The notes: a model not told the origin generated them from the letters alone. 64,000 bases of DNA from GCF_988242995.1 NZ_OZ547043.1; one strand, 5' to 3'. Positions 11,482-47,612 are shown, counted from the first letter of the stretch. Program-made: numbers and translations.

Positions 11482-11959
11482 AACAAACAACTCCTTGTCC
11501 GGAGAACCCCAACGGGGAAAACGAAATTCAATACCGTCGGTAATGACGAAAGGCAGGTGAGAAGGGCAACGAGACTGCAAATGTACTGAATTTCATGTAA
11601 TCAACCACACTGCCTGTGAACACACAGACAGAGAAATACTTTCTGACTTAGGGTCAGAATGTATAACGATTACAAATAGTCATCAGCACATTACACCTCT
11701 TGAATTGATGGGTTGCATAGAAAATATACACCTTAAGTGTAATTAAAATTTGCGGTTAATCAAAAGAGCGCGGTGGAAAGGGGAATATCTGCCGGGTACA
11801 GGACATGTAAAACGCGAGCTTGTTTCCGGAAAAATGTATCGTTTGCAGAAGAATAAAAATAGCCTGGAAAGCGCCTCGGGGAATGGGAAATTGCCGGGTG
11901 AGAATGGTTTTGTTAGTCGCTAAAGTCAGGCCATCTTTTTCAACAGGTGATGGATCGCC

Positions 11960-12874
11960 ATGACAAACTTCACGACCAGCACGCCGCATGATGCATTATT
12001 TAAAACCTTTCTCACGCACCCTGACACTGCGCGGGATTTTATGGAGATTCACTTACCTAAAGATTTACGTGAACTGTGCGATCTCGATAGCTTAAAACTG
12101 GAATCCGCCAGCTTTGTCGATGAAAAATTGCGGGCGCTACACTCCGATATTTTATGGTCGGTAAAGACCCGCGAAGGCGATGGCTATATCTATGTGGTGA
12201 TTGAACATCAGAGCCGCGAGGACATTCATATGGCCTTTCGCCTGATGCGCTATTCCATGGCGGTGATGCAGCGCCATATAGAGCATGATAAACGCCAGCC
12301 GCTACCGTTGGTCATCCCGATGCTATTTTATCACGGTAGCCGTAGTCCTTACCCCTGGTCCCTGTGCTGGCTGGACGAATTTGCCGACCCGACTACCGCA
12401 CGGAAGCTTTATAACGCCGCGTTCCCGCTGGTGGATGTTACTGTCGTGCCAGACGACGAGATTGTGCAGCATCGCAGAGTCGCCCTGTTGGAGTTGATCC
12501 AAAAGCATATTCGCCAGCGCGATCTGATGGGGCTTATCGATCAACTGGTAGTATTACTGGTTACAGAGTGTGCTAATGACAGCCAGATAACTGCGCTGTT
12601 AAATTACATTTTACTGACTGGCGATGAAGCGCGTTTTAATGAGTTTATCAGTGAACTTACCCGTCGAATGCCACAACACAGGGAGCGAATAATGACGATT
12701 GCAGAGCGAATTCATAATGATGGATATATAAAAGGGGAGCAGCGCATTCTTCGATTGTTGTTGCAGAATGGGGCGGATCCTGAATGGATACAAAAGATTA
12801 CCGGACTTTCGGCAGAGCAAATGCAGGCATTAAGGCAGCCCTTGCCTGAGCGCTATTCATGGCTCAAGAGCTAA
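11960..12874 (+). CDS. rpnD: Recombination-promoting nuclease RpnD (YhgA/transposase_31 family, PD-(D/E)XK), intact 304 aa
   Basis: Single uninterrupted 304-aa ORF ([36 protein letters not shown]...), the characteristic Rpn N-terminus; K-12 carries this locus as the split pseudogene yjiP/yjiQ (from memory). Confidence 0.8.
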
Positions 12875-13117: not shown

Positions 13118-14530
13118 TTATTCCATTGCCCGATACACGGCCTCGCCAATTTGCTTCAGTGCTTCGCGATAGGTTTCGCTGAGCGGCAAAGCGCAGTTGA
13201 TGCGCAGACAATTACGGTATTTGCCGGAAGCTGAGAAAATCGAGCCTGCCGCCACCTGGATTTTCATGCGGCACAGCTGCCGCGCGACGCAGACCATATC
13301 GACCTGTTCAGGCAATTCTATCCACAGTAAAAATCCGCCTTTCGGGCGCGTAATACAGATTTCGCAGGGAAAATATTCCCGTATCCAGCAGGTATAAAGC
13401 GCCAAATTGCGCTGATAGATCTGCCGCATCCGCCGGATATGGCGATGATAGTGACCTTCCAGCACAAACGTTGCCGCCGCCATTTGCGTGGACGGCACAT
13501 TAAAGCTGCTGATGGCGTATTTCATATGCATCAGTTTATCGTGATAACGCCCCGGTGCGACCCAACCCACGCGCAGGCCTGGTGCAATACTTTTACTGAA
13601 CGAGCTGCACAACAGCACTCGCCCGTCGATATCCCAGGAATGAATGGTCCGCGGGCGCGGATACTCCGTCGCCAGTTCGCCATAGACATCATCTTCAAAA
13701 ATCACAATATCATGACGCTGAGCGAGAGAGAGAACGGCCCGTTTGCGCGCGTCCGGCATAATAAATCCCAGCGGATTATTACAGTTTGGCACCAGAATGA
13801 TGCCTTTAATCGGCCACTGTTCCAGCGCCAGTTCCAGCGCTTCAACGCTGATGCCAGTTTCTGGATCGGTTGGGATTTCAATCACTTTCACGCCCATGCC
13901 GCGCAGCATCTGCATCGAACCGTAATAACAGGGGGATTCGACCGCGACAATATCGCCCGGTTTACACACTGCCATTAACGCCAGCGACATCGAGTTATGG
14001 CAGCCGCTGGTGATGATGATGTCATCGGCGGTGACCACCGAGCCGCTGTCGAGCATCAGGCGGGCAATCTGCTCTCGCAATACTCGCTGACCGGCTAACA
14101 AGTCATAACCGAGAACGGTTTGCAGATTATGCTGCACCACCCGGCTTAGCTCCCGCCAAAGCGGTTTCAGGCTGGGCGCTTCGACATCCGGTGTGCTTTT
14201 GCTTAACGGAACAATGGAACTGTCGCTATGCGCCTCCAGCATATCCAGCACCTGATCCCACTGGGTAATTTCCACCGGGCGCTGCACCGGACGCGTCATC
14301 GGCGGTACTGGCGGCTGGGCTTTACGTTGTGCGACAAAATAACCCGAACGCGGCTGCGGAGTGATGAGCTTCATCGTCTCCAGCGTCTGATACGCCTGCT
14401 GCACGGTGCTGATACTGACGCCGTGCTCCTGACTTAAGCTGCGCACCGACGGCAATTTCTCCCCGTGACGATACAGCCCTTGCTCAATCCGCTCGGCAAG
14501 CAGAGTTGCCAGATGTTGATAACGCGTCAT
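13118..14530 (-). CDS. yjiR: MocR-type regulator YjiR (GntR HTH fused to PLP aminotransferase-like domain)
   Basis: 470-aa ORF; N-terminal GntR HTH (LPSVRSLSQEHGVSISTVQQAYQTLE); PLP-lysine motif SFSKSIAPGLRVGW. Confidence 0.85.
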   Translation of the reverse strand: MTRYQHLATLLAERIEQGLYRHGEKLPSVRSLSQEHGVSISTVQQAYQTLETMKLITPQPRSGYFVAQRKAQPPVPPMTRPVQRPVEITQWDQVLDMLEAHSDSSIVPLSKSTPDVEAPSLKPLWRELSRVVQHNLQTVLGYDLLAGQRVLREQIARLMLDSGSVVTADDIIITSGCHNSMSLALMAVCKPGDIVAVESPCYYGSMQMLRGMGVKVIEIPTDPETGISVEALELALEQWPIKGIILVPNCNNPLGFIMPDARKRAVLSLAQRHDIVIFEDDVYGELATEYPRPRTIHSWDIDGRVLLCSSFSKSIAPGLRVGWVAPGRYHDKLMHMKYAISSFNVPSTQMAAATFVLEGHYHRHIRRMRQIYQRNLALYTCWIREYFPCEICITRPKGGFLLWIELPEQVDMVCVARQLCRMKIQVAAGSIFSASGKYRNCLRINCALPLSETYREALKQIGEAVYRAME

Positions 14531-14706
14531 GCTGTATTCCTTATTTGGACCATACAGAGAGAAAAACCGGTACAGATGAGGCTAAAAAACCGGATGCAGA
14601 TGCTGTTTTAACCTGTCTGTATGTTAAATAAAACTAATATTTGCATCTGTATTGTGAACTGCCTGAAGGTGGATGATGAAGCCTCTGAAAGATGAGGAGG
14701 CAGCAG

Positions 14707-14871
14707 ATGGAATTTTACGAAAACAAAGCCAAAACGCCGTTTATCAGACTTGTGCAACTCTGGCAGGCGGTGAGGCGTTGGCGGCGGCAAATGCAGACCC
14801 GACGAGTGTTACAGCAGATGAGTGATGAGCGGTTGAGGGATATCGGGTTACGCAGGGAGGATGTGGAGTGA
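14707..14871 (+). CDS. yjiS: DUF1127-family small protein YjiS (54 aa); below the ORF-track size cutoff
   Basis: ATG at 14707 preceded by a strong GAGGAGG Shine-Dalgarno; product MEFYENKAKTPFIRLVQLWQAVRRWRRQMQTRRVLQQMSDERLRDIGLRREDVE; stop TGA 14869-14871. Confidence 0.7.
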   Translation: MEFYENKAKTPFIRLVQLWQAVRRWRRQMQTRRVLQQMSDERLRDIGLRREDVE

Positions 14872-15320
14872 GGGGGATATAGATTTATATATAATAAAAC
14901 GTTTTTATGTTGTTAAATTAAGTTATAAAAATTTTCCCGAGACAATTCATCAATAGGTATGGAGTGTACAGGAATATCTTCTTCACTAACCTCTTTAAAC
15001 TCATACTGATAACGGTCAAAAAACGCACAGTGATTACTTGTGTTTTTTGACTGACTTTACAACTCTCATTATTCGCTATTGTGCAGTTTCTCTAATTGTT
15101 TTATATCCTGGAATGTTAAATGTCAGCTACTGAATACTTTTTGATTGTTTGAGATTTATTTTCATTTGAAATTATAAAATCAGGTGATAAATGAGTTGTG
15201 ATTAATAGATGGTTGATATCATTTTTATCAAAAATTGATTTCTAGTATCGACCTTAAAAAATAGTTGTTGCCGCTTGGTTAATTATACGATATTTTGAAA
15301 AGTTTTCTTTCAAATTAGAA

Positions 15321-18300
15321 ATGTTGTGGGGTTTTGTTTTTGTATCTTTTATCTCTAAGGAGCTTGCTTTGGGTCAATCAGAATACATTTCATGGGTAAA
15401 ATGTACTTCCTGGCTAAGTAACTTTGTGAATCTTAGAGGGTTGAGACAACCGGATGGACGTCCTCTTTATGAATATCATGCAACCAATGCTGAATATAAC
15501 CAATTAACGCAGCTACTCTGTGCTGTTGGTCAATCACAATCTAATATATGTAATAGAGACTTTGCTGCCTGTTTTGTTCTTTTTTGCTCTGAGTGGTACC
15601 GCAGGGATTATGAACGGCAATGCGGATGGACGTGGGACCCTATATATAAAAAAATAGGGATTTCATTCACCGCCACAGAGCTTGGTACTATCGTACCGAA
15701 AGGGATGGAAGATTACTGGCTGCGCCCAATTCGATTTTATGAATCTGAACGACGTAATTTTCTCGGAACATTATTCAGTGAAGGTGGTTTACCTTTCCGG
15801 CTACTCAAAGAATCAGACAGTCGCTTTCTGGCTGTTTTCTCCAGGATCCTTGGACAATATGAGCAAGCAAAGCAGTCAGGTTTTTCTGCCCTTTCGCTGG
15901 CAAGAGCTGTCATAGAAAAATCAGCGCTGCCAACTGTTTTTAGCGAAGATACCTCTGTAGAACTTATCAGTCATATGGCTGATAACCTCAATTCCTTAGT
16001 ACTTACTCACAACCTAACAAATCACAAAGAACCAGTACAACAGCTTGATAAGGTTCACCCTACCTGGCGAAGCGAGTTTCCAATACCGTTAGATGATGAA
16101 ACAGGAACGCATTTTTTGAATGGACTGCTATGCGCAGCCTCTGTAGAGGCTAAGCCTCGACTACAAAAAAATAAGAGTACGCGTTGCCAATTCTATTGGT
16201 CAGAAAAGCATCCAGATGAGCTTAGGGTGATAGTATCTCTTCCTGACGAAGTTTCCTTTCCTGTAACTAGCGAGCCGTCAACTACGCGCTTTGAACTTGC
16301 CATTTATGAAGATGGTGAGGAAGTCTCTGGCCTTGGGCCAGCCTATGCTTCCCTGGAAAACAGACAGGCAACAGTTCGATTACGTAAAAGCGAAGTGAGA
16401 TTTGTCAGGCAAAATCCATCTGCAGGTTTGTCGTTAGTGGCTCGTGCTGGAGGGATGATTGTTGGGAGCATTAAACTTGATGACAGTGAAATTGCCATTG
16501 GTGAGGTGCCGTTAACCTTCATCGTTGATGCAGATCAATGGCTGTTACAGGGACAGGCCTCCTGCAGTGTGCGAAGCAGCGATGTTCTGATTGTGCTCCC
16601 TCGGGACAATAGCACTGTTGCTGGTTTTGATGGCCAATCGAGTGCAGTAAACGTATTAGGACTTAAAGCGCTACCTGTTAAGGGATGTCAGGACGTTACA
16701 GTTACAGCAAATGAAACTTATCGGATTCGCACCGGAAGAGAACAAATCAGCATCGGAAGGTTTGCTCTAAATGGAAAGCGTGCAAGCTGGGTTTGTCATC
16801 CAGATGAGACATTTATTGGTGTACCAAAAGTCATTTCTACACTACCAGATATTCAAAGCATTGATGTAACGCGTTACCTGAGCGGAATTTCAATTGAGCA
16901 ATGTCATATACAAGAGATGCTAGGGGCTCAATATCTTTCTATCCGTAATAGTAATAATGAAACGCTCTTGCGTCGCAAAATCGGTATCTTGCCTGCTGAT
17001 TTCAGTATTGAGATAAAAGGTGGAATGCACGCAAATGAAGGCACTATCGTAATCACCACACAGCATCCTTGTGTAGCAACACTTAAAGATAAAACATTGG
17101 AGGCTACACGTAAGCGTACTGAGGGGCGAACAGAGATACAACTCAAAGCGGAAGGGGTACCTCCGGCATTTATTACATTACAAGTTCTGCCTAATTTGGC
17201 GGCTGATACCATCGACATTGAGTTACCTTTCCCAGCTAAAGGCTGCCTTGCTCTTGATGTAAACGGACGTCCTCTGGATAAAAACATTACGCTGCATGAT
17301 CTGCTGGGTTCCAGAGCATTCCTGTTCTCCAGAAATGGTGAGCCGACAAAATATACATTGCAGTTGCATTTGCGCTCCATTAGTGGATTACAGGCATGGC
17401 ACGAATGGAGTTATACGGCATTGAGCGAGCGTCCTGTTGAATTGAATCTCTATAGTCTACGTGAACACATTGAAAATCTGATTTCACTTGAGGCAGGTAT
17501 TGATCAGGTTGTTGAGATGCGTATTACGGGGGCGGGTGTGGTCATGGCCTGGCAAATTCGTCGCTATAAATACAGCCTGCGCTATGATTATGAAAAAGAA
17601 CTATTACTCAGCCAGTCAGTGAACCATCGTGCTGGACAGATTCCTTCCCCCGTTATCATGCTGTTAAGTGAACCCGAGAGGAAATCCATTCCCTTAGCAT
17701 CAAGAATGAGCGAGGGAGTGCCTGTCGGTGAATATGAGTTGAGCTCAATCGTTAACAAAAACGGACCATGGTTGGTTGTTCCTAAACCGGGTGAAGAGAT
17801 GGCTTTTCGCCCCTGCTTCATTCGTGGCGAATCTTCGTTACCGGTAGAAGAAAGCAACATCCGCTCATTGCAGAAAGCGACCCAGCTTTTTAATCCACAG
17901 GCAGAAGTTAATACCATCACACGGGTTCTCGGACAGATGGCTAACGATCCTGCCCATTCCGGCTGGCAATTTATGCGTAGCCTGTACGATCAATTTGGTT
18001 ATTTACCGCTGGCAACCTTTGAAGTATGGCGTGCACTAGTGCAGCATCCGCAGGCATTGGCGATGTCGCTCTTCAAATTCGAAATGTCAGCAGAGTATCT
18101 GAGTCGTATTGAGAATGAGTTCCCTATTTTATGGGAGTTTTTCCCCATCTTTGAGATCAAAGCTGCATCTGAGCGTTTCAAATTGTTCCTGAGCCAAAAA
18201 GGTGCACCGGAGGAAACCCAGAAATTACTGGTTACCAATATGTTTCAACGGCTGGGGCTCGTGTTCCCGACATATGCCGATGAAATTGAGAAATGGTTAA

Positions 18301-18659
18301 GTAATGGATATCTCCCCCCGTCTATTCCTGAATCTTGTGTCCACGGGTGGTATCAGGAGCTCTTACGTGAGCACAGTGAAGCTCGCTGGCCTGAATACGG
18401 CTGCAAGCGTCTGTATAAATGGATGATGTCACAAAAAAATCCAGTGATTGGTATTAATCCTGACGCAAATCACCGCTATTCCGTGGCCTGGTTACCCGTC
18501 TTCGCCGCAGCGGTGGCAAGCGGAAATGCTTCTTTTGAATCTGTATTTGACCGTAAACCCGGTGCCGTATTTTTCCTGAGGCAAGTCAGGGATTTCGATT
18601 CCCGCTGGTTTAAGGCCATCTTCCAGTTCAGCCTGTTGCGTTATGTTGCTAAAAAATAA
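15321..18659 (+). CDS. yjiT: Large protein of unknown function (1112 aa); intact counterpart of the K-12 yjiT pseudogene; candidate DruH-like partner of the downstream helicase
   Basis: Uninterrupted 3.3-kb ORF with no motif I recognise; AT-rich 5' end; alternative in-frame TTG start at 15369 has a perfect AAGGAG Shine-Dalgarno; stop is 12 nt before the next gene. Confidence 0.8.
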   Translation: MLWGFVFVSFISKELALGQSEYISWVKCTSWLSNFVNLRGLRQPDGRPLYEYHATNAEYNQLTQLLCAVGQSQSNICNRDFAACFVLFCSEWYRRDYERQCGWTWDPIYKKIGISFTATELGTIVPKGMEDYWLRPIRFYESERRNFLGTLFSEGGLPFRLLKESDSRFLAVFSRILGQYEQAKQSGFSALSLARAVIEKSALPTVFSEDTSVELISHMADNLNSLVLTHNLTNHKEPVQQLDKVHPTWRSEFPIPLDDETGTHFLNGLLCAASVEAKPRLQKNKSTRCQFYWSEKHPDELRVIVSLPDEVSFPVTSEPSTTRFELAIYEDGEEVSGLGPAYASLENRQATVRLRKSEVRFVRQNPSAGLSLVARAGGMIVGSIKLDDSEIAIGEVPLTFIVDADQWLLQGQASCSVRSSDVLIVLPRDNSTVAGFDGQSSAVNVLGLKALPVKGCQDVTVTANETYRIRTGREQISIGRFALNGKRASWVCHPDETFIGVPKVISTLPDIQSIDVTRYLSGISIEQCHIQEMLGAQYLSIRNSNNETLLRRKIGILPADFSIEIKGGMHANEGTIVITTQHPCVATLKDKTLEATRKRTEGRTEIQLKAEGVPPAFITLQVLPNLAADTIDIELPFPAKGCLALDVNGRPLDKNITLHDLLGSRAFLFSRNGEPTKYTLQLHLRSISGLQAWHEWSYTALSERPVELNLYSLREHIENLISLEAGIDQVVEMRITGAGVVMAWQIRRYKYSLRYDYEKELLLSQSVNHRAGQIPSPVIMLLSEPERKSIPLASRMSEGVPVGEYELSSIVNKNGPWLVVPKPGEEMAFRPCFIRGESSLPVEESNIRSLQKATQLFNPQAEVNTITRVLGQMANDPAHSGWQFMRSLYDQFGYLPLATFEVWRALVQHPQALAMSLFKFEMSAEYLSRIENEFPILWEFFPIFEIKAASERFKLFLSQKGAPEETQKLLVTNMFQRLGLVFPTYADEIEKWLSNGYLPPSIPESCVHGWYQELLREHSEARWPEYGCKRLYKWMMSQKNPVIGINPDANHRYSVAWLPVFAAAVASGNASFESVFDRKPGAVFFLRQVRDFDSRWFKAIFQFSLLRYVAKK

Positions 18660-18671
18660 AAAGGAATAAGG

Positions 18672-21600
18672 ATGACTACACGCTATTTTTCGTCACTTAT
18701 TGAACAATCGTTGTCTCGTTCAACTGAAGCAACGCTCAGTATCATGGGCGTTACAAACCCGCAGTTGCGTGAACATCTCGCGCAGCAAATGGGGGCTGAT
18801 TGTGGGAAACCGGGCTCATTCCTTGCTTCTCCGGTATTCCAGCAAATGTTTGGCTGGAAGGAGTCAAACCACACGATGCGCAGTCTGACGGAAGGCAACG
18901 CATTGTTGAGCAAAGCAGTGGTTGATTCACTGGATGATCAGAGTAATGGCCGGTACCGATTTGGTGCTGACTGGAAGCCTTTTACACACCAGTTAGCCAG
19001 TTGGAAAGCTTTGCTGGAAAAGAAACATTCAGTGGTGGTAACCAGTGGTACGGGTTCAGGTAAAACGGAATGTTTTATGGTACCGGTGCTGGAAGATCTT
19101 TACCGGGAACTGCATGAAAATGGCAACAATCCGTTGGTCGGTGTCCGAGCCCTTTTTCTCTATCCATTGAACGCCTTGATTAATTCACAGCGCGAGCGTC
19201 TGGATGCCTGGACGCGTGGTTTTGGTACTGGGATCCGCTACTGCTTGTATAACGGAAATACAGAAGAGCTCCACGCAAAAATGAAAACAGTGCAGGATAA
19301 TAGACCAAATGAAGTCTTATCCCGTGAAAAGATGCGTCTGGAGCCAGCCCCGATTCTGGTGACCAACGGCACGATGCTGGAATATATGATGGTTCGCCAG
19401 GTCGACGCCCCGATTATCCAGCAATCCAAAGCACAAAAATCACTACGCTGGATTGTACTGGATGAAGCGCATACCTATGTCGGGTCGCAGGCCGCTGAAC
19501 TGGCACTCCAGCTGCGTCGTGTGATGACAGCGTTTGGCGTGACGCCAGATGATGTGCGCTTTGTAGCGACCTCTGCGACCATTGCCTGCAGCGACGCCGA
19601 AAAGCAGCTGAAAAAATTTCTCTCTGAATTATCCGGTATCCCGCAGGAGCGCATCGATGTTCTGGACGGAAGTCGGGTGATTCCTGAACTGGAACCATCC
19701 AAAAACGTTTCTGTTCCGTTAGACGAAATAGAGCAAATACCTGATCTGGATCTAAAAGATAAAAATGATAATAAAATTAAAGGGATAAGCCCTGAGCGCT
19801 TTTATGCGCTTACGCACTCCCCCGAAGCGCGTTACATACGTGAAATGTTGGTTAGCCAACCCAATCCAATGAAACTGGATGAGATGACGCAGCGGTTAAA
19901 TGCGCTGACAAAACAGCATTACAGCCAGCAGGAAGTACTGCGTTGGATCGATGTCTGTTCAGGGACTCAACCTAATGCAAAGGATCCCGCATTTCTTAAA
20001 GTCAGGGCGCATATCTTCCAGCGTAATACCCAAGGAATATGGGCTTGTGTTGATAAAGATTGCAGATTAAAGCACGGTACACCGCTCGAAAAAGGCTGGC
20101 CCTTTGGCTATGTGTATGTGAACCAGCGACAAAATTGTGACTGTGGAAGCCCTGTATACGAAGTTGCATTCTGTAATGATTGTAATGAGCCTCATCTTCT
20201 GGCGCAGGACAAAAAGGGCAAACTTGTCCAATGGGAAAATAAAGGTGGCGATGAGTTCTCCTTGCAGGATGAAGTACCTGTTGAACATGACACTACAGAG
20301 GAAAAAGTCGAAAAAGAGAACGGTTTCCTGCCTCCGTTGATTATTGCCGCAGGAGAGACCAGCGAGACAGGCTATACCCTACAACGCCTCGACCACCAGA
20401 CGCGCCGTATTGGCGTTATTAACAATGACAGCATTCCGCTGATTATTAATGATGTTGAACAGGTTTGTAGCGCCAGTGGCTGTGGCTACAGAGGCATGAG
20501 TGGGAAACAGCCCTTCCGGCGTGCACTATTAGGTGGGCCATTTTACGTTACTAATATCGTGCCCACCGTTCTTGAGTATTGTCAGGACTTTACCAGTGAT
20601 GAAGGCAAAGAGGGCGTCGGACCAGATTCGTTGCCAGGGCGAGGACGTCGACTCATTACCTTTACGGACAGTCGACAAGGTACAGCTCGAATGGCGGTGC
20701 GTATGCAGCAAGAAGCAGAACGCAGTCTCTTACGCGGAAGCGTAGTCGAAATTCTGAGCTGGCATCAACGGACGCAAACGTCCACGGCGCCGAATGCCAA
20801 TGCCGATCTGGAAAAATTAGCGGCCAGGGCAAAGCAAGCCCGTGAGCAGGCAGAAGAATATCGAAGCTGGGGAATGCCAGACCAGGCGAAATTGTCACAA
20901 GCACAGGCTGAACAGCTTGAACAGGCTTATCAGGCTGCAACCGGTGGAAAAGCAGCAACTACCCTGGTATCCCGCACCTGGACAGAAATGGTTAACGAGC
21001 TTAAAGATAAAGCCGATATCCGTGGCCCGGTACTGAAATATAACCACTATTTGCAGCCTGAAGTGTTTAATAAAAACGGCGGGCCACTAAAGCTTTCGGA
21101 AATGTTGTTGTTCCGGGAATTCATGCGTCGCCCTAAACGGACTAACAGCCTGGAAACACAGGGGCTGGTTCAGGTTGGTTACCAGGGGCTGGAGAAAATA
21201 CATAAGAGCCCCTTGCACTGGCAGGAAAAAGGATTAACGCTGGATGACTGGCGCGATTTTCTCAAGGTTACGTTGGATCTTTATGTTCGCGAAAGCAACT
21301 TCACACAGCTGGATGATGAGCTGAAAAACTGGATTGGTAGCCGTTTTTCATCAAAATTCGTCCGTAACCCGGAATCAAAAGATCCTGAAGATAATCAGAA
21401 CAGACGCTGGCCTCAAATTCGTAATGGCAACGTATCCCATCGTTTAGCGAAGTTACTGATGCTGGGGGCTGGATTCAAAACCGTCAATACGGCGACTATT
21501 GATATTATCAATACATGGCTGAAAGAAGCATGGGCCCAACTTACCGGACCACTTGCAGTACTGAAACCCGATGGCAACCGTTTTTATTTACCGAAAGAGC

Positions 21601-24600
21601 ATATGACTTTTTCTTTAATCACGGATGCCTGGATTTGCCCGGTAACCAATAAAATCCTGGATACGGCTTTTAAAGGCTTAACCCCTTATCTGCCCACCCA
21701 TATTTCGTTCGAGCATCTTACCCAGGCGCAATATGACACTTTTGTCGCGCAGAAAGTCACCATGCCGGAAATCTGGAAGCTGGATCGTTCACAGGAAGAC
21801 TACGCAGAGGGTCTGGCAAAAGCACGAGACTGGGTCAACAATGATCCGCTGATCGCACAATTGCGGTCGGAAAACGTCTGGACAGACATCAACGATCGTG
21901 TAGTGGAAGGCGGTTTCTACTATCGCACTGCCGAGCACTCTGCCCAGCAGTCGTCAGAACGCCTGCAAAGCTATGAAAAGATGTTCAAGAACGGGCAACT
22001 AAATGTTCTCAACTGTTCCACCACCATGGAAATGGGGGTTGATATTGGGGGCATTACTGCGGTGGTAATGAACAACGTTCCGCCACATCCGGCCAACTAT
22101 TTACAGCGCGCCGGGCGAGCCGGGCGTAGTAAAGAATCACGCGCGATCTCTTATACCCTATGCAAAGGTAACCCACACGACCAGCAGGTTTTTGCCAACC
22201 CACTCTGGCCATTTGAAACCATGATCCCGGCACCCATGGTCGCGATGAACTCCGCCCGACTGGTGCAACGTCACGTCAATGCATTATTACTGTCTGACTT
22301 TTTATGTAACGTTATTGGCGAAACCGATAAAGAGAAAACCAGCCTCGATAGCCTCTGGTTTTTCGGTGAAGATGACGGGCAGTCAAAATGCGAACGCTTT
22401 AAAGTCTGGCTGGAACGCCCGGTTCTTGATATCGACATGGCGCTGGAACGGCTGGTGAAAGGTACGGCGTTGCATGGCGCAAGAGCCGAACATCTGCGGG
22501 ATAAAACAATCAATGCGATCACCTTCCTGCAACAGCGGTGGCTCTCCGTTTATCGCGATCTCGTGACCCAGGAGCGTGAGTCGCAGCCGCAAACGCCTTA
22601 TCGTAAGCGCATAGAGCTGGAGAAGAAACGGCACTGTGGCGAGTATCTGCTGCGCGATCTGGCTGCCAGAACCTTCCTGCCGGGATACGGTTTCCCGACA
22701 GATGTAGTGACGTTTGATAACTTCACGATGGAAGATTATATCCGCGAAAAATCGCAGAAAAGTCGTGATAAAAAGGACCGTGAAGATAACGTCTCCCGTT
22801 ATAAAGGATTACCTTCCCGTAACCTCGGTGTTGCCATTCGTGAATATGCACCGGGAGCAGAGATCATTCTTGATGGTCGTGTCTTCCGCTCTGCCGGTGT
22901 CTCACTGCACTGGCACAACATTAATGCTGATACCAATGAAGCCCAGCGTCTGGATTGCGCCTGGCGCTGTCACAAATGCGGGACCATTGGCTATGAAGAG
23001 GGGATGAGCAGTTCCGGGATGCTCTTTTGCTCCAACAGCGCCTGCGGCGAAAAAATAACCATGGATAATCGCCGTCAGGTGTTGCAGCCTGCCGGGTTTG
23101 TCACCGATGCACACGCTCCGGTAACGAACAATATTGAAACCATGAAATTCGTCCCGGTTGTCCCCGCGTGGGTCTTTGTTAAAGCAGAGCCTGTACCGTT
23201 GCCTAACCCGCTAATGGGTTATATGGCTTCTGGGGCTGATGGGCATGTTTTCCAGCAAAGTTTGGGGGAAGGTGGACACGGTTATGCATTGTGTCTGAGC
23301 TGTGGCCGTGCGGAGTCGATGCTGAATGAAAATGATGCACCGAAAAGTATGGAAGCTCACTATCCACCGCGTCCGGGTAAAGCGGACCGCGACAGCCAGA
23401 ATCATCGTCTGATTTGCCCCGGTTCGACGGCACTCATGAAGAACGTCACCCTGGGCGCACTGGCGCGCACCGATGTCTTTGAAATGGTTCTGCGCAAACC
23501 GCAAAACGGCGAGTATCTGCCAGATAACACAGAAGAGGGGCGGATTGTCGCTATGACTCTGGCGGTTGCTCTGCGTCAGGCGCTGGCAGGCGTTCTGGGT
23601 ATCTCCGCCGCAGAACTCGGCTATTCTGTACGTCCGGTCAGACTGGAGGATGGGCAATCGGTATTAGCCGTTCAGCTTTATGATGTGATCAGCGGTGGTG
23701 CTGGTTTTGCCTCCAGCGCACCGGTACATATTGAAGCTATATTGCAGGGAATGGTGAAACAGTTAGGCTGCCGCCATTGTGATACTGCATGCAGTGAATG
23801 TCTGCTTGATTCCCAGACTCGCCACGATCACGATTTGCTGGATCGCAAAGTGGCGCTGGCTTGGCTTGGCGATGACTTCACGTATTACATCGGTTTACCG
23901 GATGAAGAGACATTCTCGCTGCCGGATGCCCGCTACTGCCCTGGCGCTATTGGCGATACGATTCGCCGGGCGATTAACGAAGGCGCTGAAAAGCTCACCC
24001 TGTGGATGACTGGCGCGCCCAATGAGTGGGATTTATACGGCCGTCAGTTCCGCGCGGCTATTCAGAGCTATCGGCTAAAAGACAACGTCGAGGTCGATCT
24101 TGTTATTCCTGCGGGAGTGGATGACCCAGACCTGTTGCATGAACTATCGCAATTTACTGCGCTGGGTGTGCGGTTGTGCCATGTTGAGCAGGAGCTGCAA
24201 TTACCGATTGTTGCCCAGGTCACCTTTGCCGATCGCGTGATGACGCTGGCCTCTCGCAGTCAGCAGGCAACGATTCCGGGGCCGGAGTGGCACCTGAATG
24301 ACGAACTGGTGGTGCGTAGTCTCGGTTATCAAACGGTAGAACTGAACGAGTTTATTCTGCCCGCTAAAGCCGCCAACGCTGTCGAGCGGGTCAAAGACAT
24401 TCAGATCCACAAACAGTTGAATGGACCACTTTCGCAGTTTGGGCAACGCTTCTGGGACGTGCTGTTTAACGACCATGAAGAAGCGCAGTCACTGATGAAA
24501 AACACGCGAATTACCGGCGTTCACTATACCGATCGCTATCTGCAAAACCCGGTTGCGCTGGCGTTGTTGGGATCAATTCTGAAACCGCTAAAAACAAAGC

Positions 24601-25016
24601 TGACCGATGGCGCTGAAGTGGCGCTGGATACGCTGTTTAAAGATAAAGATCGCCCCGGTAACCGGCCTTTCCATGACTGGATGAGCATAGCGGATTTTCA
24701 GGATTTCGCTGATCAGTGGTTTGCTGCTGCGCTGGGCAGGCCGATAGAACTGACGGTGTTCGATTCGCCGCGCGATATCCCTCACCATCGTAAACTGACG
24801 GTGACTTTTGAGGATGGTCAGGTATTGAAGATCCGCTTCGATCAGGGGATGGGCTACTGGCGCATCAACTTTGCATCGCAATGGCATTACTTTGATTTCC
24901 GCGATGACGTTTCTTTCCAGTTAGTCAAAATGGCTCAGGCCTGCAAGGAAGGGAATGTGGCCAACAGCGAAGAGAGCTGGGCAACGGATGTGCTGGTGGA
25001 GGTGATCGCCTCCTGA
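18672..25016 (+). CDS. yjiV: Giant SF2 (DEAH-type) helicase with Cys-ribbon modules (2114 aa); intact counterpart of the K-12 yjiV pseudogene; candidate DruE-like defence helicase
   Basis: AAGGAATAAGG Shine-Dalgarno before ATG 18672; Walker [10 protein letters not shown] (aa 124-132, nt 19041-19067); motif II VLDEAH (aa 262-267); motif [10 protein letters not shown] (aa 1145-1152); Cys clusters near nt 20046-20184 and CxxC...CxxC near nt 23292-23812. Confidence 0.85.
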
Positions 25017-25023
25017 TGATGTG

Positions 25024-25050
25024 CCGCTCCCGACGTCGTGTCGGGAGCGG
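25024..25050. terminator. GC-rich stem-loop between convergent yjiV (druE-like) and mcrC; possible bidirectional terminator or RNA-stability element
   Basis: 11-bp perfect stem CCGCTCCCGAC / GTCGGGAGCGG with a 5-nt loop; no clear U-tract on either strand. Confidence 0.45.
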
Positions 25051-25072
25051 TATTGTCTATAAAACTTACCGC

Positions 25073-26119
25073 TTATTTGAGATATTCATCGAAAATGGCG
25101 AGTAATTCTTGATGTATACACGGCCATTCCTGACCTAAATTGACGGTACACAGGCCAATATCGAAGCCATTAATTTTATAACGATGTTTCACTGCGGTGT
25201 CTACGTGGGGGTATATTAATAAACCCCCTATGTTTTCGCCATTTTCAGGTTTTAACGACCATAAGTAATTCATCAGTTGATAAAGATTTTGAGAGTGAAA
25301 TTTTTCTGAGCCCATTCGTCGTGAAAAAATGCTCTTATAGTATTTGGCGTCAACGATAAGTATTTTTTCTGATGAGCGAATGGTGATGTCAGTTTCCATT
25401 CGAGGTAACAAATTAAGTGACTGATCCGATATGCTCGATGCATCCCATTTTAAATAAGAGCGGGTTGTATTTGCAGACGTTAATTCACGGCGGCAAAATT
25501 CAAAAAGAAACTTTTGATAAAGTAATGACATCTCTTTTTCGTTTCTTTCAAAATCATAGAAACGGTAGTGTCCTTTGTTTTGACCTGGGATAGAATTATT
25601 GACGATGAACTTACAGACGCTGATAACAAATTTATAATAACGCGTGTTCTTTCCGCCATTCAGATAGCTGAAATGCTGCGGAGTTAAATGAAGAGTGCTA
25701 ATGCCCGGTAATTTTCTATAAAGTGAACGAGCTTCATCTCTGATGGTTGAGTTTAACTTTTCATGCTTAATTAACATGGCTAATGTGCTTTTTATAATTC
25801 GGTTAGCCAGCGTATCTTCATTAAGCAGATCAAAAGTACTGACGGTTTTCCCATGATTAAGATGGAAGCCGCGTATTGTTTTAGCAAACTCTATTCGCCC
25901 TTTGATGCCAGGAATGATCTCGGTATTAGGATTGTAATCAAGCTCAAGCCCTCGGCGTGAAAGCTGTAAAACCCCTTTATTTAATACATACCCCAGGATA
26001 TCAAGAAGATTGTTACCGGGAATGGCTTCAAGGTCGGCCTGCTTAATTTCCTGTAAATAACCCCATGCATAGGTAAGCATGTAATAGATATTACGGACAG
26101 GTATCACGGGCTGTTCCAC
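25073..26119 (-). CDS. mcrC: McrC, nuclease subunit of the McrBC modified-cytosine restriction system
   Basis: 348-aa ORF; its start overlaps the mcrB stop; AT-rich codon usage typical of mcrBC; matches McrC length. Confidence 0.9.
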   Translation of the reverse strand: MEQPVIPVRNIYYMLTYAWGYLQEIKQADLEAIPGNNLLDILGYVLNKGVLQLSRRGLELDYNPNTEIIPGIKGRIEFAKTIRGFHLNHGKTVSTFDLLNEDTLANRIIKSTLAMLIKHEKLNSTIRDEARSLYRKLPGISTLHLTPQHFSYLNGGKNTRYYKFVISVCKFIVNNSIPGQNKGHYRFYDFERNEKEMSLLYQKFLFEFCRRELTSANTTRSYLKWDASSISDQSLNLLPRMETDITIRSSEKILIVDAKYYKSIFSRRMGSEKFHSQNLYQLMNYLWSLKPENGENIGGLLIYPHVDTAVKHRYKINGFDIGLCTVNLGQEWPCIHQELLAIFDEYLK

Positions 26120-27498
26120 TATGAGTCACCTAATAATTTGTCGGCCCATATCTGTTGTTTATAGGGGTCATCAAAGAAATATTCTTCGAGTAAAGGGGCG
26201 ATATCCGTCATCACAATTTCCTTAAGCCATTGCGTATCAGGAGAGGTGCCATCTTCCAACCCGGAGCAGAAGTAACTATGCCCAATGCGGAATCCTTTCC
26301 CAAGGATAGTGGCCTCTTTGCTGATTTCCTGGTTTAACTCATTCATTTTTTGGCATAAAGACTCAACAAATGAAGGTTCTGCTTTTTTATTCAGTAAAAA
26401 ATTACGGAACTGTGGTGTATCAAAACCAGGCTCAATATCTATGAAAGAAAATCGTCTGCGCAGGGCATAATCAACAACGGCCAGAGAGCGATCGGCAGTA
26501 TTCATTAAACCGATAATATAAACATTCTCCGGGACATAGAATCGTTCTTCATCGTTTTCGGAATAGGTTAAGGGAACAGACCAGTTTTCACCTCGTTTAT
26601 CATGTTCCATTAACATCATCACTTCGCCAAATACTTTACTGAGATTGGCACGATTGATTTCATCTATAATAAAAACATACTTTTTCTCTGGCTGCTCTTT
26701 AGCTTGCTGACAAAAATTGTAAAATATGCCGTCTTTACGTCGGAAGCCGACGCCATTCGGACGATAGCCCTGTATAAAATCCTCATAGCTATAAGATTGA
26801 TGGAACTGAACCATATTGACGCGTTGCGGAGCCTTTTCTCCTGTCAGCAGGTAAGCCAGACGGCGTGCAACAAAGGTTTTTCCAACGCCGGGCGGCCCCT
26901 GGAGGATAATATTTTTTTTGATGGTTAATCGTTTGAGTATCGTCTCTATCGTGGTTTCAGGGATAAACAAATCATTTAACGCATCTTCCAGACAGTATGA
27001 TTCAGTTTTTGACATAGGTGGAATAACACTCTTGCCAGAATTAAATATTAATTTATAGTCGTTGATTATGTTGTCCAGCATGGAGGCAAACCGGGTATAA
27101 TCAAGACCCTGTGAGACTTTTTGGGAACAGGCGTAATAGGACTGTCCGTATTTTTTAGGATAAACACCTGAAGTTGTCTGGAAATACTCTGCGATTGTTT
27201 TAGGTATGTCTGAAGAGAACTGCCATTGGGCATGTGGTTTATTCGTGTCGCTTATACCATAAGCCAAAACCAACTCATCAAAATCTTTATAATAGAGAAT
27301 AACGGGATATATACCGTTAGAAACTTCCTGACCTTCTCCCAGAAATGCAAACCAGGGAATAGATGTAAAATTGCCATAACCGAAACTCACTTTTACTCGC
27401 AGGTTACGGTAAGACGTTGGATAATCTTTGGTGGATTGTGAACTTTTTTGCTGTGCTTGCTCAATAAATTTTTCAATCCAGGCTTGAATTGATTCCAT
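26119..27498 (-). CDS. mcrB: McrB, GTP-binding AAA+ DNA-binding subunit of McrBC
   Basis: Start at ATG 27498 (MESIQAWIEKF..., AGGAAGG Shine-Dalgarno) gives 459 aa; the ORF-track Met six codons upstream is the alternative; Walker A GPPGVGKT; in-frame internal Met162 (codon 27013-27015) matches the known McrB-s short form. Confidence 0.9.
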   Translation of the reverse strand: MESIQAWIEKFIEQAQQKSSQSTKDYPTSYRNLRVKVSFGYGNFTSIPWFAFLGEGQEVSNGIYPVILYYKDFDELVLAYGISDTNKPHAQWQFSSDIPKTIAEYFQTTSGVYPKKYGQSYYACSQKVSQGLDYTRFASMLDNIINDYKLIFNSGKSVIPPMSKTESYCLEDALNDLFIPETTIETILKRLTIKKNIILQGPPGVGKTFVARRLAYLLTGEKAPQRVNMVQFHQSYSYEDFIQGYRPNGVGFRRKDGIFYNFCQQAKEQPEKKYVFIIDEINRANLSKVFGEVMMLMEHDKRGENWSVPLTYSENDEERFYVPENVYIIGLMNTADRSLAVVDYALRRRFSFIDIEPGFDTPQFRNFLLNKKAEPSFVESLCQKMNELNQEISKEATILGKGFRIGHSYFCSGLEDGTSPDTQWLKEIVMTDIAPLLEEYFFDDPYKQQIWADKLLGDS

Positions 27499-27659: not shown

Positions 27660-28001
27660 TTACGCGACTTTCTGTTTACCGGCAATCACTCCAATAAACG
27701 CCTGCACCTGCTTTTGTTTACGTGCCGACAGCTTGCACACCTGGCGCAGCGACTGCATCAGTTCGCTCTCTTCGACGGCGAGTGGTTGGGCGGTGAGGAC
27801 AATACAGCCTTCCATCACTTTGACATCTACCGCCGTGCCGGTGGTAAAACCGGCGGCTTCCAGCCACTGACCTTTCAGGGTGATGGCGGGAATACGGCTG
27901 TAATCCGGGTAGCGACTCGCATAACTCACGGTTAATTGACGGTTATTTGCCGGGGAGACTTCTGCTTCGAACGGTTGTGCAATAGAATGCATGTCAGTCA
28001 T
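27660..28001 (-). CDS. symE: SymE, SOS-induced toxin-like protein (AbrB-fold; YjiW)
   Basis: 113-aa ORF ([52 protein letters not shown]...); LexA-box-like site about 78 nt upstream. Confidence 0.85.
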
Positions 28002-28071
28002 GATTACTATTCCTTAGAAATAGGGATTGTGATTAGCGGTGCGGGTGTGTTGGCGCACATCCGCACCGCGC
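27995..28071 (+). ncRNA. symR: SymR (RyjC) cis-antisense sRNA opposite the symE 5' end; coordinates approximate
   Basis: Candidate -10 TAGAAT at 27983-27988 on the + strand inside the symE 5' coding region; transcript would cover the symE start codon and Shine-Dalgarno and end at a GC-rich hairpin (about 28035-28071); ends not verifiable here. Confidence 0.4.
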
Positions 28072-28078
28072 TAAATAC

Positions 28079-28228: not shown

Positions 28229-29653
28229 TCAGAACTTTTTACGCGAGGCTTTTTTACCCCCGCTGGCTGCGCGCTCAGCTTTGATTTTCTCCAGCAACGC
28301 AGCGGCGCTGTTTTCTCCGCTGATTAAATCCGGGTTTTCGGCCCGCCACTGGGCGGTGAGTTCACCACGGAACGCTTTTGCCAGGATGGATTGCGTCAGG
28401 TTGTTGACGCGGGCTAAGGCGTTGTTGACCTGTTTTTCTATGGAGTCGGCGTAGGCGAAGAGTTGCTCGACGCGGCGAACGATTTCGTGTTGTTCTTCTA
28501 TAGACGGTAAAGGGACAAATGCATTTTTAAGATCTTTTAAATTTAATGTCTTTCTGGCGACCTCCTTAGATGACTGAACTAGCCATGTTTGCATAACTGG
28601 TGAACTTAACCATATATGGAGAAACATAGGAACAATAATCTTATATTCAGGAGATATTCTGGCAACGGCACGAGCGATATTAACATTTATATCTTCTCTA
28701 ACAATACCTATTCTACCTATAGCCCCAACAATTGTTACAAGAATGTCATTCTTTCGTACTTTGGAACGCTTATATTGTAAATCTATTTCCTTTGAAATTT
28801 TACGAAGATGATTTAAATCTACTTCACCATCGTTAATATCACAAACACGAATTAATTCTATACCGTCTTTTATATCATCTCCAGGTTGCACCACACCATA
28901 ACATAATGGTCTTTGTGTATTGATAATGTTATTCAAAATTGTTTCACTCCAGTCTTCTGGAATAAGGATTTTGTAGTTATCTAATTCAACTTTTTTTGTT
29001 ATAAAATCTTTATCTTCTTTGGTCAACCTACCAGTTACTGCCGCAGCCAACACCGCCTGACGAAAACGTTTCAGGATTTGTGGGATTTGCTCAAGGCGTG
29101 CTTTGGTGCTGTCTACCTGCGCCAGCAGCGTATCGAGTTTTTCAGCGATGATTTTTTGCTCGGCAAGTGGTGGCAACGGAAGTAGGGTATCTTGAAGTGT
29201 CCTGGAAGAAAGATGCTTTACAGTAACCGAGGACGTATTTGCATTGATTGCGGATAAATATCCTGGTAAGGCGTGATAGAAAAACCTTTTATTGTATTTG
29301 TCTTCCTGAACTTCAATTTTACATACTCGTTGATTTAACAGAGCTGGTTCTGAGCACCATATAGTTGCATTAAAATCACCATCCATTCCCACGATTAAGT
29401 CTTCGGGATATACCCAATATCCCTCAGGAATTTGACCCGAGTAATAAGTCGATGTATTACCTTTTAGAACATCACGAATTCTAATTAATGGTACACCATC
29501 TTTACGATTATTAAATTCTGACGACTTAAAAGCAAAACCGTTTGTGATGTTTGCTACGGAATCCATTGAAATACGTAACCAGCTATCATGGATTGAAAGT
29601 AACCCATTGATATTTTGCTCAATTAATTCTTTTGATGTTGAGTTGAAACTCAT
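28229..29653 (-). CDS. hsdS: Type I restriction-modification specificity subunit HsdS (474-aa allele)
   Basis: 474-aa ORF; GC-richer conserved N-terminal, central and C-terminal segments separated by two very AT-rich blocks (target-recognition domains); 4-nt overlap with hsdM. Confidence 0.9.
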   Translation of the reverse strand: MSFNSTSKELIEQNINGLLSIHDSWLRISMDSVANITNGFAFKSSEFNNRKDGVPLIRIRDVLKGNTSTYYSGQIPEGYWVYPEDLIVGMDGDFNATIWCSEPALLNQRVCKIEVQEDKYNKRFFYHALPGYLSAINANTSSVTVKHLSSRTLQDTLLPLPPLAEQKIIAEKLDTLLAQVDSTKARLEQIPQILKRFRQAVLAAAVTGRLTKEDKDFITKKVELDNYKILIPEDWSETILNNIINTQRPLCYGVVQPGDDIKDGIELIRVCDINDGEVDLNHLRKISKEIDLQYKRSKVRKNDILVTIVGAIGRIGIVREDINVNIARAVARISPEYKIIVPMFLHIWLSSPVMQTWLVQSSKEVARKTLNLKDLKNAFVPLPSIEEQHEIVRRVEQLFAYADSIEKQVNNALARVNNLTQSILAKAFRGELTAQWRAENPDLISGENSAAALLEKIKAERAASGGKKASRKKF

Positions 29654-39470: not shown

Positions 39471-39862
39471 AGTAAAACCTGGCATTTTACTCGTCGTCTT
39501 TTGGCTTACAGGTGCGGCAGCTGCGTTCGTTCACCCCTGTCACTTACTGTTGCAAGCTCCCGGGGATTCACTCACTTGCTGCCTTCCTGCAAACCAAAAT
39601 CCATAGAGTAATTTGTTAATCATAGGCCGAAGCCGTTCTAGGTTTGCGTTGCGTTTGAGGAGGTAAATTGACCGCTATCCTGCAGTGATGTTGCCAGAGA
39701 TACGCGCGCGTAAAGTAAGGTAAATAACTGAGTGGTTATTTTAGGGATGTAAGCGGTCAGGAATGGCGGTGAGCGGTTGGGCAAGAATTATTCATCGGGT
39801 GGATATGTGATTGAGATCACAATAAAAATGCCCCTTCGACGAATGCGTGAAGGGGCTGGAGC

Positions 39863-40375
39863 TTAAATCGCAGCTTCCATTTCCAGCATCACCGGATGGA
39901 AACGGCGTTTAAAGTAGATAAGTCCGTGACCTTCTGCACTGAGGATGATGTTTTTAATCTCCACCAGATACACCAGATGTGTGCCAATTGCCTGCACATC
40001 GCGGATCTCACCTTCAAGACTGGCCAGCGAACCTTTTAGCACCGGCTGCGCCAGCGGACCTTTTTGCCAGCATGAGAGGCTAAAACGCTCTTCCATCGCC
40101 ATGCCCGTCATGCCCGCGAAGTGGCGTGCCATCAGTTCCTGCTCATGGTTGAGGACGTTGACGCACAACTTGCCGTTGCCCTGAAAAACCGGGTTCATCG
40201 CACTGTTGGCGTTAATGCACACCATCAGCGATGGTGGTGTATCCGTGACCGAGCAGACGGCCGTTGCCGTAATCCCGCATTGTCCGGCGTCGCCCTCGGT
40301 GGTGATAATATTTACCGCTGCCGACAGGCTGGCCATCGCGTCACGAAAGCGCAGGCGTTGTTCATCTAATTGCAT
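39863..40375 (-). CDS. hpaC: 4-hydroxyphenylacetate 3-monooxygenase reductase component HpaC (flavin:NADH reductase)
   Basis: 170-aa ORF; flavin-reductase fold; directly downstream of hpaB. Confidence 0.9.
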   Translation of the reverse strand: MQLDEQRLRFRDAMASLSAAVNIITTEGDAGQCGITATAVCSVTDTPPSLMVCINANSAMNPVFQGNGKLCVNVLNHEQELMARHFAGMTGMAMEERFSLSCWQKGPLAQPVLKGSLASLEGEIRDVQAIGTHLVYLVEIKNIILSAEGHGLIYFKRRFHPVMLEMEAAI

Positions 40376-40392
40376 CTTAACCTCCTGCTGCG

Positions 40393-41955: not shown

Positions 41956-42205
41956 GTCGACCTCTACAGTATTAATCGGAATACGATTGTTAATTTTGTG
42001 TGTTGTTTTTGTTATTCAATTGAAGCTTGCAGGGGCGATTACGGGAAGACACTTTTGGGACAATGGCTGGTACTTTTCAGGTCGGGTACGGTTTTGTGAT
42101 CGAGGTCGCTTTTAGCGATTTTTGACGTTACTAAATCCCCTTGCTCCAGGCGGAGAAAGGGGAATAGCAGGTGGTGCCTGGTTTCCCGTTAAGACTAAGG
42201 GATTT

Positions 42206-43096: not shown

Positions 43097-43105
43097 CGTC
43101 GTTCC

Positions 43106-44482: not shown

Positions 44483-44503
44483 TTTTCTTCCTCTAATGGG
44501 ATT

Positions 44504-44656
<153 letters not shown>

Positions 44657-45445: not shown

Positions 45446-45455
45446 CGTTCTCTCC

Positions 45456-46259: not shown

Positions 46260-46278
46260 AGCGATATCCTGTGGCATT

Positions 46279-46362
46279 GCCGGATGCGGCTGCGCCTTAT
46301 CCGGCCTACGGTGTACGGTTTGGGGTTTTGTAGGCCCGGTAAGCGCAGCGCCACCGGGCAAT
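46279..46362. repeat. REP pair between hpaH and hpaF
   Basis: GCCGGATGCGGCTGCGCCTTATCCGGCCTAC followed by GTAGGCCCGGTAAGCGCAGCGCCACCGGGCAAT. Confidence 0.65.
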
Positions 46363-46369
46363 CTGCGCG

Positions 46370-46750: not shown

Positions 46751-46759
46751 AAAACGTCC

Positions 46760-47611: not shown

Positions 47612-47612
47612 A

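Follow-up and report, generated by a model that had tools for sequence, protein, structure and literature searches.

Druantia type III is an already described two-gene system, called outright by PADLOC-type profiles, in which a large protein, DruH, is encoded together with a still larger helicase, DruE. Resistance to phage has been shown for homologues from E. coli ATCC 8739/EDL933, P. aeruginosa and M. smegmatis, and protection of 10^3- to 10^7-fold is reported for homologues. Here we examined a druH-druE cassette between yjiS and mcrC in a 64,000-nt stretch of GCF_988242995.1 NZ_OZ547043.1 (hereafter the window, whose positions serve as coordinates throughout). The initial annotation of this DNA had described the mechanism of such systems as essentially unknown, a statement that is now outdated, as five papers from 2026 give structures and biochemistry. 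These studies agree that DruE belongs to the YprA/MrfA-like helicases, is dimeric, loads on exposed single-stranded DNA (ssDNA) at 3' tails and forks and has 3'-to-5' unwinding polarity, and that the helicase motifs, the zinc site of the MrfA Zn-binding (MZB) domain and druH are all essential. In E. coli and P. aeruginosa the defence is direct and not abortive, and in E. coli host methylation is not needed. According to Loeff et al., DruH is a 3'-5' exonuclease; it brings DruE to forked DNA, on which the two form a 1:1 complex, and DruE degrades DNA via a phospholipase D (PLD)-like pocket. Wu et al. likewise reported a helicase-nuclease, with DruH as a sensor of phage protein that has dimer-dependent nicking activity. 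Hu et al. found nuclease activity in neither protein, no canonical HxK(x)4D motif and full defence after deletion of the PLD domains; ssDNA binding by DruH was inhibited by ATP, and they proposed ATP-regulated ssDNA sequestration. Himpich et al. also found the PLD-like domains dispensable and detected no nuclease activity.

Both proteins of the cassette matched the type III profiles essentially from end to end. DruH scored 1829.8 bits with PADLOC DruH3 PDLC00049 (profile positions 3-1099 of 1100), and DruE scored 2692.5 bits with DruE3 PDLC00037 (1-2053 of 2055), the profiles DruE1, DruE2 and DruE4 scoring far below DruE3 on the same protein. DruH also reached 1276.9 bits with NCBIfam NF038336 YjiT_fam, the STY4851/ECs_5259 family (residues 31-1104, profile 1-1089 of 1090; curated cutoff 150 bits). 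The Pfam domains found in DruE were DEAD, Helicase_C and MZB, and the solved DruE of PDB 9tu7 aligned to it with 1018 bits over residues 5-2089. Nine neighbouring proteins scanned with PADLOC matched models of the restriction-modification (R-M) type only and no Dru model. Since the neighbours thus include no other Druantia components (DruA-D of type I; DruM/F/G of type II), the layout is that of the two-gene type III. The initial annotation had proposed a 'type III-like' pair of DruH and DruE and had named a PADLOC and Pfam profile search as the check; with that search run, and the DruE and DruH profiles matched over their full lengths, the cassette proves to be a plain member of the type. Its DUF1998-like Zn ribbon in the helicase corresponds to Pfam MZB (DUF1998; E 7e-9). 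The remark that the first protein had no recognisable motif did not hold, as YjiT_fam is matched directly and homologues carry Pfam YjiT_N and YjiT_2nd. A local Pfam-A search of DruH gave no match even at E 10, and the newer families YjiT_N, YjiT_2nd and YjiV_N were present only in precomputed annotations of homologues. Both proteins are already in RefSeq, and the literature already connects the YjiT family with DruH and with the immigration control region. We consider it very probable that the cassette is an intact copy of the two-gene Druantia III system and the intact ancestral form of K-12 yjiT/yjiV, with a mechanism transferred from homologues.

The two open reading frames (ORFs) run from 15321 to 18659 (+; 1112 aa counted from the first ATG) and from 18672 to 25016 (+; 2114 aa), in the same direction and with 12 nt between the druH stop and the druE start. 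At 1.1 and 2.1 thousand codons they cannot be chance ORFs. This co-directional pair, its 12-nt gap and the strong Shine-Dalgarno sequence of the second gene were seen just as first described. The ORF for a first protein of 1112 aa is also present, but this length is probably 16 residues too long, as RefSeq starts yjiT (druH) at TTG 15369, which gives 1096 aa. Because alignment with the PADLOC and NCBIfam profiles sets in at residues 19-31 of the ORF counted from ATG, and because full-length DruH homologues are mostly 1094-1117 aa long, we prefer TTG 15369 over ATG 15321.

We then compared DruE with its characterised counterparts. GSGKT, DEAH and QRAGRAGR motifs and nine CxnC pairs were found, in keeping with the DEAH helicase motifs and Cys modules recognised initially, and the cysteines form five clusters. 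In DruE from E. coli ATCC 8739 (EcDruE), defence is abolished by mutation at G118/G120/K121, by D251A/E252A, by R1135L/R1138L and by mutations of the MZB cysteines. All EcDruE residues essential for defence are kept in the window DruE, as G128/G130/K131, D264/E265, R1149/R1152, R1383 and C1700/C1703/C1707/C1710, and all of them are invariant in a five-sequence alignment. R1383 is the equivalent of the ssDNA-contact residue Ec R1372, and the DNA-contact residues R668/R673 (Ec R647/R652) are invariant too.

The C-terminus of DruE, residues 1720-2114 (395 aa), was modelled with AlphaFold2 (AF2) from an alignment of C-terminal homologue-search sequences, mostly gene fragments, together with those of five loci. 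The model had a predicted local distance difference test score (pLDDT) of 86 and a predicted template-modelling score of 0.81. Foldseek matched it to phospholipase D, phosphatidylserine synthase, SauUSI 7clg, PLD3/PLD4 and MITD1 with probabilities of 0.96-1.00; resemblance to SauUSI 7clg and MITD1 is likewise reported for the solved DruE proteins. DruE of subtype III-A has two C-terminal PLD-like domains and that of III-B lacks them, so the predicted domain pair places the window system in subtype III-A. The canonical HxK(x)4D is absent from the window DruE, which reads HHRK and then LTVTFED, and a local Pfam search of DruE gave no PLDc match. D1954/R1955/Y1956, H2038 and R2040, the residues of the PLD-like pocket, do not vary among DruE proteins whose identity to that of the window is 34-60%. 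Their motif and spacing match D1917/R1918/Y1919 and H1999/R2001 in DruE of P. aeruginosa, where defence is lost in the D1917A and R1918A mutants and degradation of DNA in vitro is abolished by D1740A.

For DruH, an AF2 model with a mean pLDDT of 83 predicted a helical, Ig-like and helical architecture, as in the published cryo-EM structures. Its N-terminal domain contains an invariant cluster of charged residues (R23, D29, R31, E42, E75, R78, R79, R119 and E138; 57 sequences). In the C-terminal domain, R1036, the equivalent of EcDruH R1064, is invariant in a 13-sequence alignment and nearly invariant in larger ones; the FFLRQVRDFD motif of this domain is conserved as well. When the DruH model was searched with Foldseek in the PDB and viral libraries, generic tandem-Ig proteins were the only matches (template-modelling score ~0.1); the published resemblance to baseplate J-like proteins is thereby neither tested nor supported. 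For DruH and DruE alike, identity, intactness, architecture and conserved residues are what the present analysis shows.

We next asked where the cassette stands among known systems. The studied E. coli Druantia III (ATCC 8739, EDL933, NCTC 12923, EPEC42) lies on the mobile element OI-172/SPIDER, beside Zorya II and ARMADA II, and is designated 'cluster 11'. As far as they can be placed, the E. coli experiments (four mechanistic preprints and an earlier screen) used this variant. The III-A system of the ATCC 8739 type (PDB 9tu7 for DruE, 9tud for DruH) has the same gene order and orientation as the window cassette, with proteins of 1119 and 2104 aa versus 1096 and 2114 aa. Its DruE has the same domain series, the same best PADLOC model, DruE3, and the tested catalytic and Zn residues in common with the window DruE, but the identity of the O157/ATCC 8739-type protein over the full length is 33%. 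For DruH, identity to the studied E. coli protein by domain is 26% (N-terminal), 18% (Ig-like) and 16% (C-terminal). As hhalign aligned the window DruH with the characterised O157-type DruH at 99.7% probability over 864 columns, homology is secure despite the low identity. The best PADLOC sub-model for DruH is PDLC00041 in the studied E. coli system and PDLC00049 in the window. With its low identity, other sub-profile and other neighbours, the window system falls outside the E. coli 'cluster 11'.

Closer relatives were found elsewhere. Over the full length, the window DruH is 63% identical to S. Typhi STY4851 and 61% to the protein of Kosakonia radicincitans, and 41-48% identical to proteins of Pseudomonas, Aeromonas and methanotrophs. 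The founding type III DruHE, from Kosakonia/Enterobacter radicincitans DSM 16656, falls in the same clade, as judged at species level from K. radicincitans DruH, which like STY4851 has the same length and Pfam YjiT_N/YjiT_2nd. The founding type III relatives and the window differ in chromosomal position, the latter being yjiS-mcrC. Doron et al. reportedly tested only Druantia type I, which is consistent with a statement in the literature. Loci of Pseudomonas, Salinisphaera and Methylotuvimicrobium keep the druH-druE pair, often with type I R-M genes next to it. In Pseudomonas schmalbachii (L004:1-5714) and Methylotuvimicrobium (L007:1-5940), druHE lies a few kb downstream of an hsdR/hsdM/hsdS operon, with a phage-type integrase on its other side in the Methylotuvimicrobium locus. 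In Salinisphaera sp. T31B1 (L006:1-18642), druH-druE directly follows recC, recB and recD. One study found Druantia III to be sensitive to RecD loss and the synergy with Zorya II to need intact RecBCD; the adjacency in Salinisphaera may be a coincidence.

The type III system of P. aeruginosa BL12 (DruE ERY33374.1, DruH ERY33375.1; Loeff et al.), compared by description only, has the same architecture, namely DUF1998 plus a pair of PLD-like domains in DruE, and an N-terminal helical part, Ig-like repeats and a C-terminal helical part in DruH. The DEAH glutamate is E266 in BL12 and E265 in the window, and the DRY and HxR motifs are 82 residues apart in BL12 versus 84 in the window DruE. The residue numbers given for BL12 DruH (R22, K28, E64, E220) fit neither the window DruH nor P0121, the P. 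aeruginosa member of the clade, and the BL12 system may belong to another clade than the window. More distant YprA/MrfA-like kin (DISARM DrmA/DrmB, Dpd DpdJ, ARMADA and B. subtilis MrfA) have the superfamily 2 (SF2) core and the MZB/DUF1998 Zn module in common with DruE. Matches to DISARM, Dpd and MrfA amount to 30-120 bits and cover the RecA domains only, versus ~2700 bits for DruE3; the weak matches of the window DruE were to PADLOC DrmA (~33-35 bits) and DpdJ, NCBIfam DpdJ and PDB 6znp. DISARM, which has a DrmA helicase with a separate DrmB (DUF1998), DrmC (PLD) and either a methyltransferase (DrmMI/MII) or DrmD, was rejected on the weak DrmA match, the fusion of helicase, DUF1998 and PLD-like parts in one protein and the presence of hsdM, of the type I system, as the sole nearby methyltransferase. 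Low score, partial coverage and gene content also led to the rejection of a Dpd-like system; the cassette is adjacent to no Dpd biosynthesis, methyltransferase or DrmD/SNF2 genes.

The cassette contains no frameshift or stop across 9.6 kb. Compared with an E. coli allele of ~97% identity, dN/dS was 0.147 for druH and 0.121 for druE, and both genes are therefore under purifying selection. The last 300 codons of druE had the highest dN/dS along the gene, 0.29, and are still constrained. Positive selection in DruH was sought between two E. coli alleles, and none was seen in the first 900 codons (windowed dN/dS 0.07-0.20). In strain 789, the druHE cassette region is 100% identical to the window, but a difference in hpaB (see below) indicates that the window derives from another strain with this cassette.

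By contrast with this intact copy, K-12 was described in the initial annotation as having only pseudogene remnants, yjiT and yjiV, at this position. Alignment bore this out, with the same flanks and two deletions. K-12 keeps window positions 14001-16877, 19895-22044 and 24229-26200 at 96-98% nucleotide identity. The first deletion (16878-19894) removes the C-terminal 593 aa of DruH and residues 1-408 of DruE with motifs I and II, and the second (22045-24228, 2184 bp) removes DruE residues ~1125-1852 with motif VI and the MZB domain. What remains in K-12 are three fragments, which RefSeq annotates as pseudogenes with an internal stop. Among 5426 complete E. coli genomes, 675 match the cassette, and in 231 (~4%) a single place covers 80% or more of it. 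In E. coli B strains only the 3' third is left, and one E. coli copy is interrupted by an IS66-family element. On the S. Typhi contig (L005:12313-18637), STY4851 (DruH) is intact and the DruE frame is split into ORFs of 845 and 1301 aa, with no gene called; Druantia III in this genome appears to be a pseudogene, having decayed independently of K-12.

Since every relevant DruE residue is conserved, the helicase part of the published model transfers well to the window system. DruE, as a dimeric SF2 helicase, would load on exposed ssDNA at 3' tails, forks and intermediates of phage recombination-dependent replication, and would unwind the duplex 3'-to-5' with ATP and its Zn-binding accessory domains. 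DruH would bind, and probably trim or nick, the same DNA intermediates and associate with DruE on forked DNA. Together the two proteins would remove or immobilise replicating phage DNA, so that the infected cell survives without abortion. Self-DNA would be spared as it rarely exposes such structures, and not through methylation. The substrates, polarity and protective phenotype in this model are carried over from literature on homologues that are 20-33% identical or unplaced. The DruH part transfers less well, with one mapped ATP/ssDNA-site residue kept. For the window clade we favour a nucleolytic output, which is suggested by the invariance of the PLD-like pocket across divergent DruE proteins. 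It is also conceivable, though unlikely, that the yjiT-locus clade differs from the studied E. coli system in sensing and killing. This is suspected because its DruH has ~20% identity to the studied protein, the ATP/ssDNA-site residues are mostly absent, the Ig-like region is variable and the DruE pocket has an extra lysine (HHRK).

Several observations weigh against an intact, working Druantia III system of this kind. The EcDruH ATP/ssDNA-site residues N672, Y733, D735, R1031, H1062 and K1067 are not kept in the window DruH, which leaves R1064 (R1036) as the sole mapped residue of that site in common, and identity to DruH of the ATCC 8739 type is 24% over the N-terminal 580 aa and ~19-20% overall. 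No experiments on the window clade, either phage challenge or biochemistry, were found in the literature searched. The published studies disagree over which protein, if either, cuts DNA, two groups finding the PLD domains dispensable and seeing no DruE nuclease activity and two others reporting it as required, and the M. smegmatis study reports an abortive infection activated by a tail protein. As the system has been lost in K-12, B strains and S. Typhi, it is dispensable. In the ~500 bp upstream of druH (14872-15368), a sigma-70 consensus scan found 0 sites against 2.7 expected in shuffles, so that expression in the source strain is unproven.

Part of this uncertainty concerns how the system would act. 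The same two proteins could work without any nuclease of their own: DruE would unwind, DruH would coat ssDNA once ATP falls, the PLD-like domains would not be catalytic, and the immobilised genome would be finished by other nucleases (McrBC, the type I enzyme, Mrr or RecBCD). We regard this as a real possibility, although a doubtful one. The findings of Hu et al. and Himpich et al. speak for it, the motif of the window DruE is likewise non-canonical and escapes Pfam PLDc, and the cassette is surrounded by nucleases able to cut. However, an invariant pocket in DruE proteins as divergent as these would be unexpected for a functionless appendage, and the end of the gene, with its highest dN/dS, remains constrained. 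The P. aeruginosa mutants described above point the same way, and the E. coli DruH ATP-site residues are for the most part missing from the window protein.

It is also improbable, to a greater degree, that the cassette is intact but idle in the source strain, being either silent (for instance as H-NS-bound AT-rich DNA) or dependent on partner systems missing from this island, for example Zorya II or ARMADA II, and heading towards a decay like that in K-12. Selection appears to be ongoing, with dN/dS of 0.12-0.15 and undisrupted frames, and both genes have good ribosome-binding sites. Moreover, a system of the OI-172 type protects alone from a plasmid with its native promoter, and the other loci examined have the gene pair but neither Zorya nor ARMADA. 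Against these points stand the lack of sigma-70 consensus sites in a 500-bp upstream region of 37% GC (0.37 in windows spanning 14500-15999 versus ~0.50 in the flanks), the separate decays in K-12, B strains, the IS66-interrupted copy and S. Typhi, and the behaviour of native Druantia III in ATCC 8739, which on its own protected at least modestly against only 3 of 66 phages and worked chiefly in synergy. H-NS and StpA are reported as host factors of a related E. coli Druantia III system. Finally, the DEAD, Helicase_C and MZB core is common to B. subtilis MrfA/YprA (PDB 6znp, E 1e-16), and mitomycin C turns the E. coli system cytotoxic, a link to DNA-damage intermediates. A helicase module of the MrfA/YprA type for housekeeping DNA repair, with no role in immunity, is nevertheless hardly credible: the MrfA match is limited to residues 84-307 of the 2114 of DruE, defence profiles are by far the best matches, and homologues confer the phage protection cited above. 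The distribution is also patchy, with largely intact copies in 231 of 5426 genomes, a location in a restriction island, and R-M genes or an integrase adjacent in other genera.

If the cassette is, as we think, an intact Druantia III system, then K-12 yjiT/yjiV is the wreck of such an operon with both destructive deletions mapped, and about one in 25 complete E. coli genomes still has a largely intact copy, a value mostly of bookkeeping. Carrier strains would have one more DNA-directed defence than K-12, which is relevant to phage therapy and host range. Being resident and only distantly related to the E. coli variant studied so far, the clade would also offer a cheap and informative second test case for the nuclease dispute. 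Should the clade need the PLD nuclease or read another phage cue, this could help to settle the 2026 disagreement over DNA cutting.

The features of the cassette and its immediate surroundings are collected in Table 1.

Table 1. Positions of features of the druH-druE cassette in the window
Feature	Position	Strand	Evidence or remark
AT-rich non-coding stretch yjiS-druH, presumed promoter region	14872..15368	.	GC and sequence; promoter inferred
Shine-Dalgarno AAGGAG of druH	15357..15362	+	6 nt 5' of TTG 15369
druH (= intact yjiT), 1096 aa	15369..18659	+	PADLOC DruH3, NCBIfam YjiT_fam, RefSeq WP_001556397.1 'protein YjiT', hhalign
DruH N-terminal helical domain, aa 1-258	15369..16142	+	AF2 model; domain best conserved with solved DruH 9tud
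DruH central beta-rich Ig-like repeats, aa 270-820	16176..17828	+	AF2 secondary structure; lowest conservation within clade
DruH C-terminal helical domain, aa 834-1096, with R1036 and FFLRQVRDFD motif	17868..18656	+	AF2 model
Shine-Dalgarno AAGGA of druE	18661..18665	+	6 nt ahead of ATG 18672
druE (= intact yjiV-type helicase), 2114 aa	18672..25016	+	PADLOC DruE3, Pfam, PDB 9tu7, RefSeq WP_001472887.1
DruE motif I (Walker A, GSGKT, aa 128-132, K131)	19053..19067	+	motif read; aligns with EcDruE G118/G120/K121, invariant
DruE motif II (DEAH, aa 264-267, D264/E265)	19461..19472	+	motif read; EcDruE D251/E252 equivalent
DruE motif VI (QRAGRAGR, aa 1145-1152, R1149/R1152)	22104..22127	+	motif read; EcDruE R1135/R1138 equivalent
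Zn-binding Cys4 of MrfA Zn-binding (DUF1998) domain, C1700/C1703/C1707/C1710	23769..23801	+	Pfam MZB; = EcDruE C1681/C1683/C1687/C1690
DruE C-terminal PLD-like domain pair, aa 1720-2114	23829..25013	+	AF2 model and Foldseek
D1954-R1955-Y1956, PLD-like pocket	24531..24539	+	invariant in 5 and in 17 DruE sequences
H2038-H2039-R2040 (then K2041), non-canonical HxK-like motif, second PLD-like domain	24783..24791	+	H2038, R2040 invariant
GC-rich hairpin, perfect 10-bp stem, 5-nt loop (CGCTCCCGAC gtcgt GTCGGGAGCG)	25025..25049	.	read by eye

A consensus terminator scan downstream of druE made no call. The hairpin at 25025-25049 sits between the stop codons of the convergent druE and mcrC genes and has no T-tract on either strand, which explains why the scan did not call it; it is possibly a bidirectional transcript end. 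The cassette is flanked by yjiS upstream and by the convergent mcrC downstream, followed by mcrB, symE/SymR, hsdS-hsdM-hsdR and mrr. This gene order agrees with the placement beside McrBC, a type I R-M system and Mrr given in the initial annotation, and the setting is a defence island.

Within this island, the SymE toxin gene (27660-28001, -) and the antisense RNA SymR (27996-28072, +) lie between mcrB and hsdS. SymR matched Rfam RF01809 with 93 bits, the sole Rfam match within the 64-kb window. The hsdS gene (28229-29653, -), whose best PADLOC match was the type I specificity model PDLC03189, has a GC content of 0.37-0.40 versus 0.53-0.56 in hsdM/hsdR, which suggests a swapped specificity allele. 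Upstream of the cassette, a gene for an Rpn-family recombination-promoting nuclease (11954-12874, +; 306 aa) is intact in the window, and its K-12 counterpart, found in the yjiP/yjiQ region, has an internal stop and is a pseudogene. Overexpression of yjiP, at the edge of the immigration control region, was reported to raise RecA-independent recombination. The window also contains a 4-hydroxyphenylacetate catabolic (hpa) cluster at ~39800-50300, in which hpaB (40393-41955, -) is intact; in strain 789 this gene is annotated with an internal stop.

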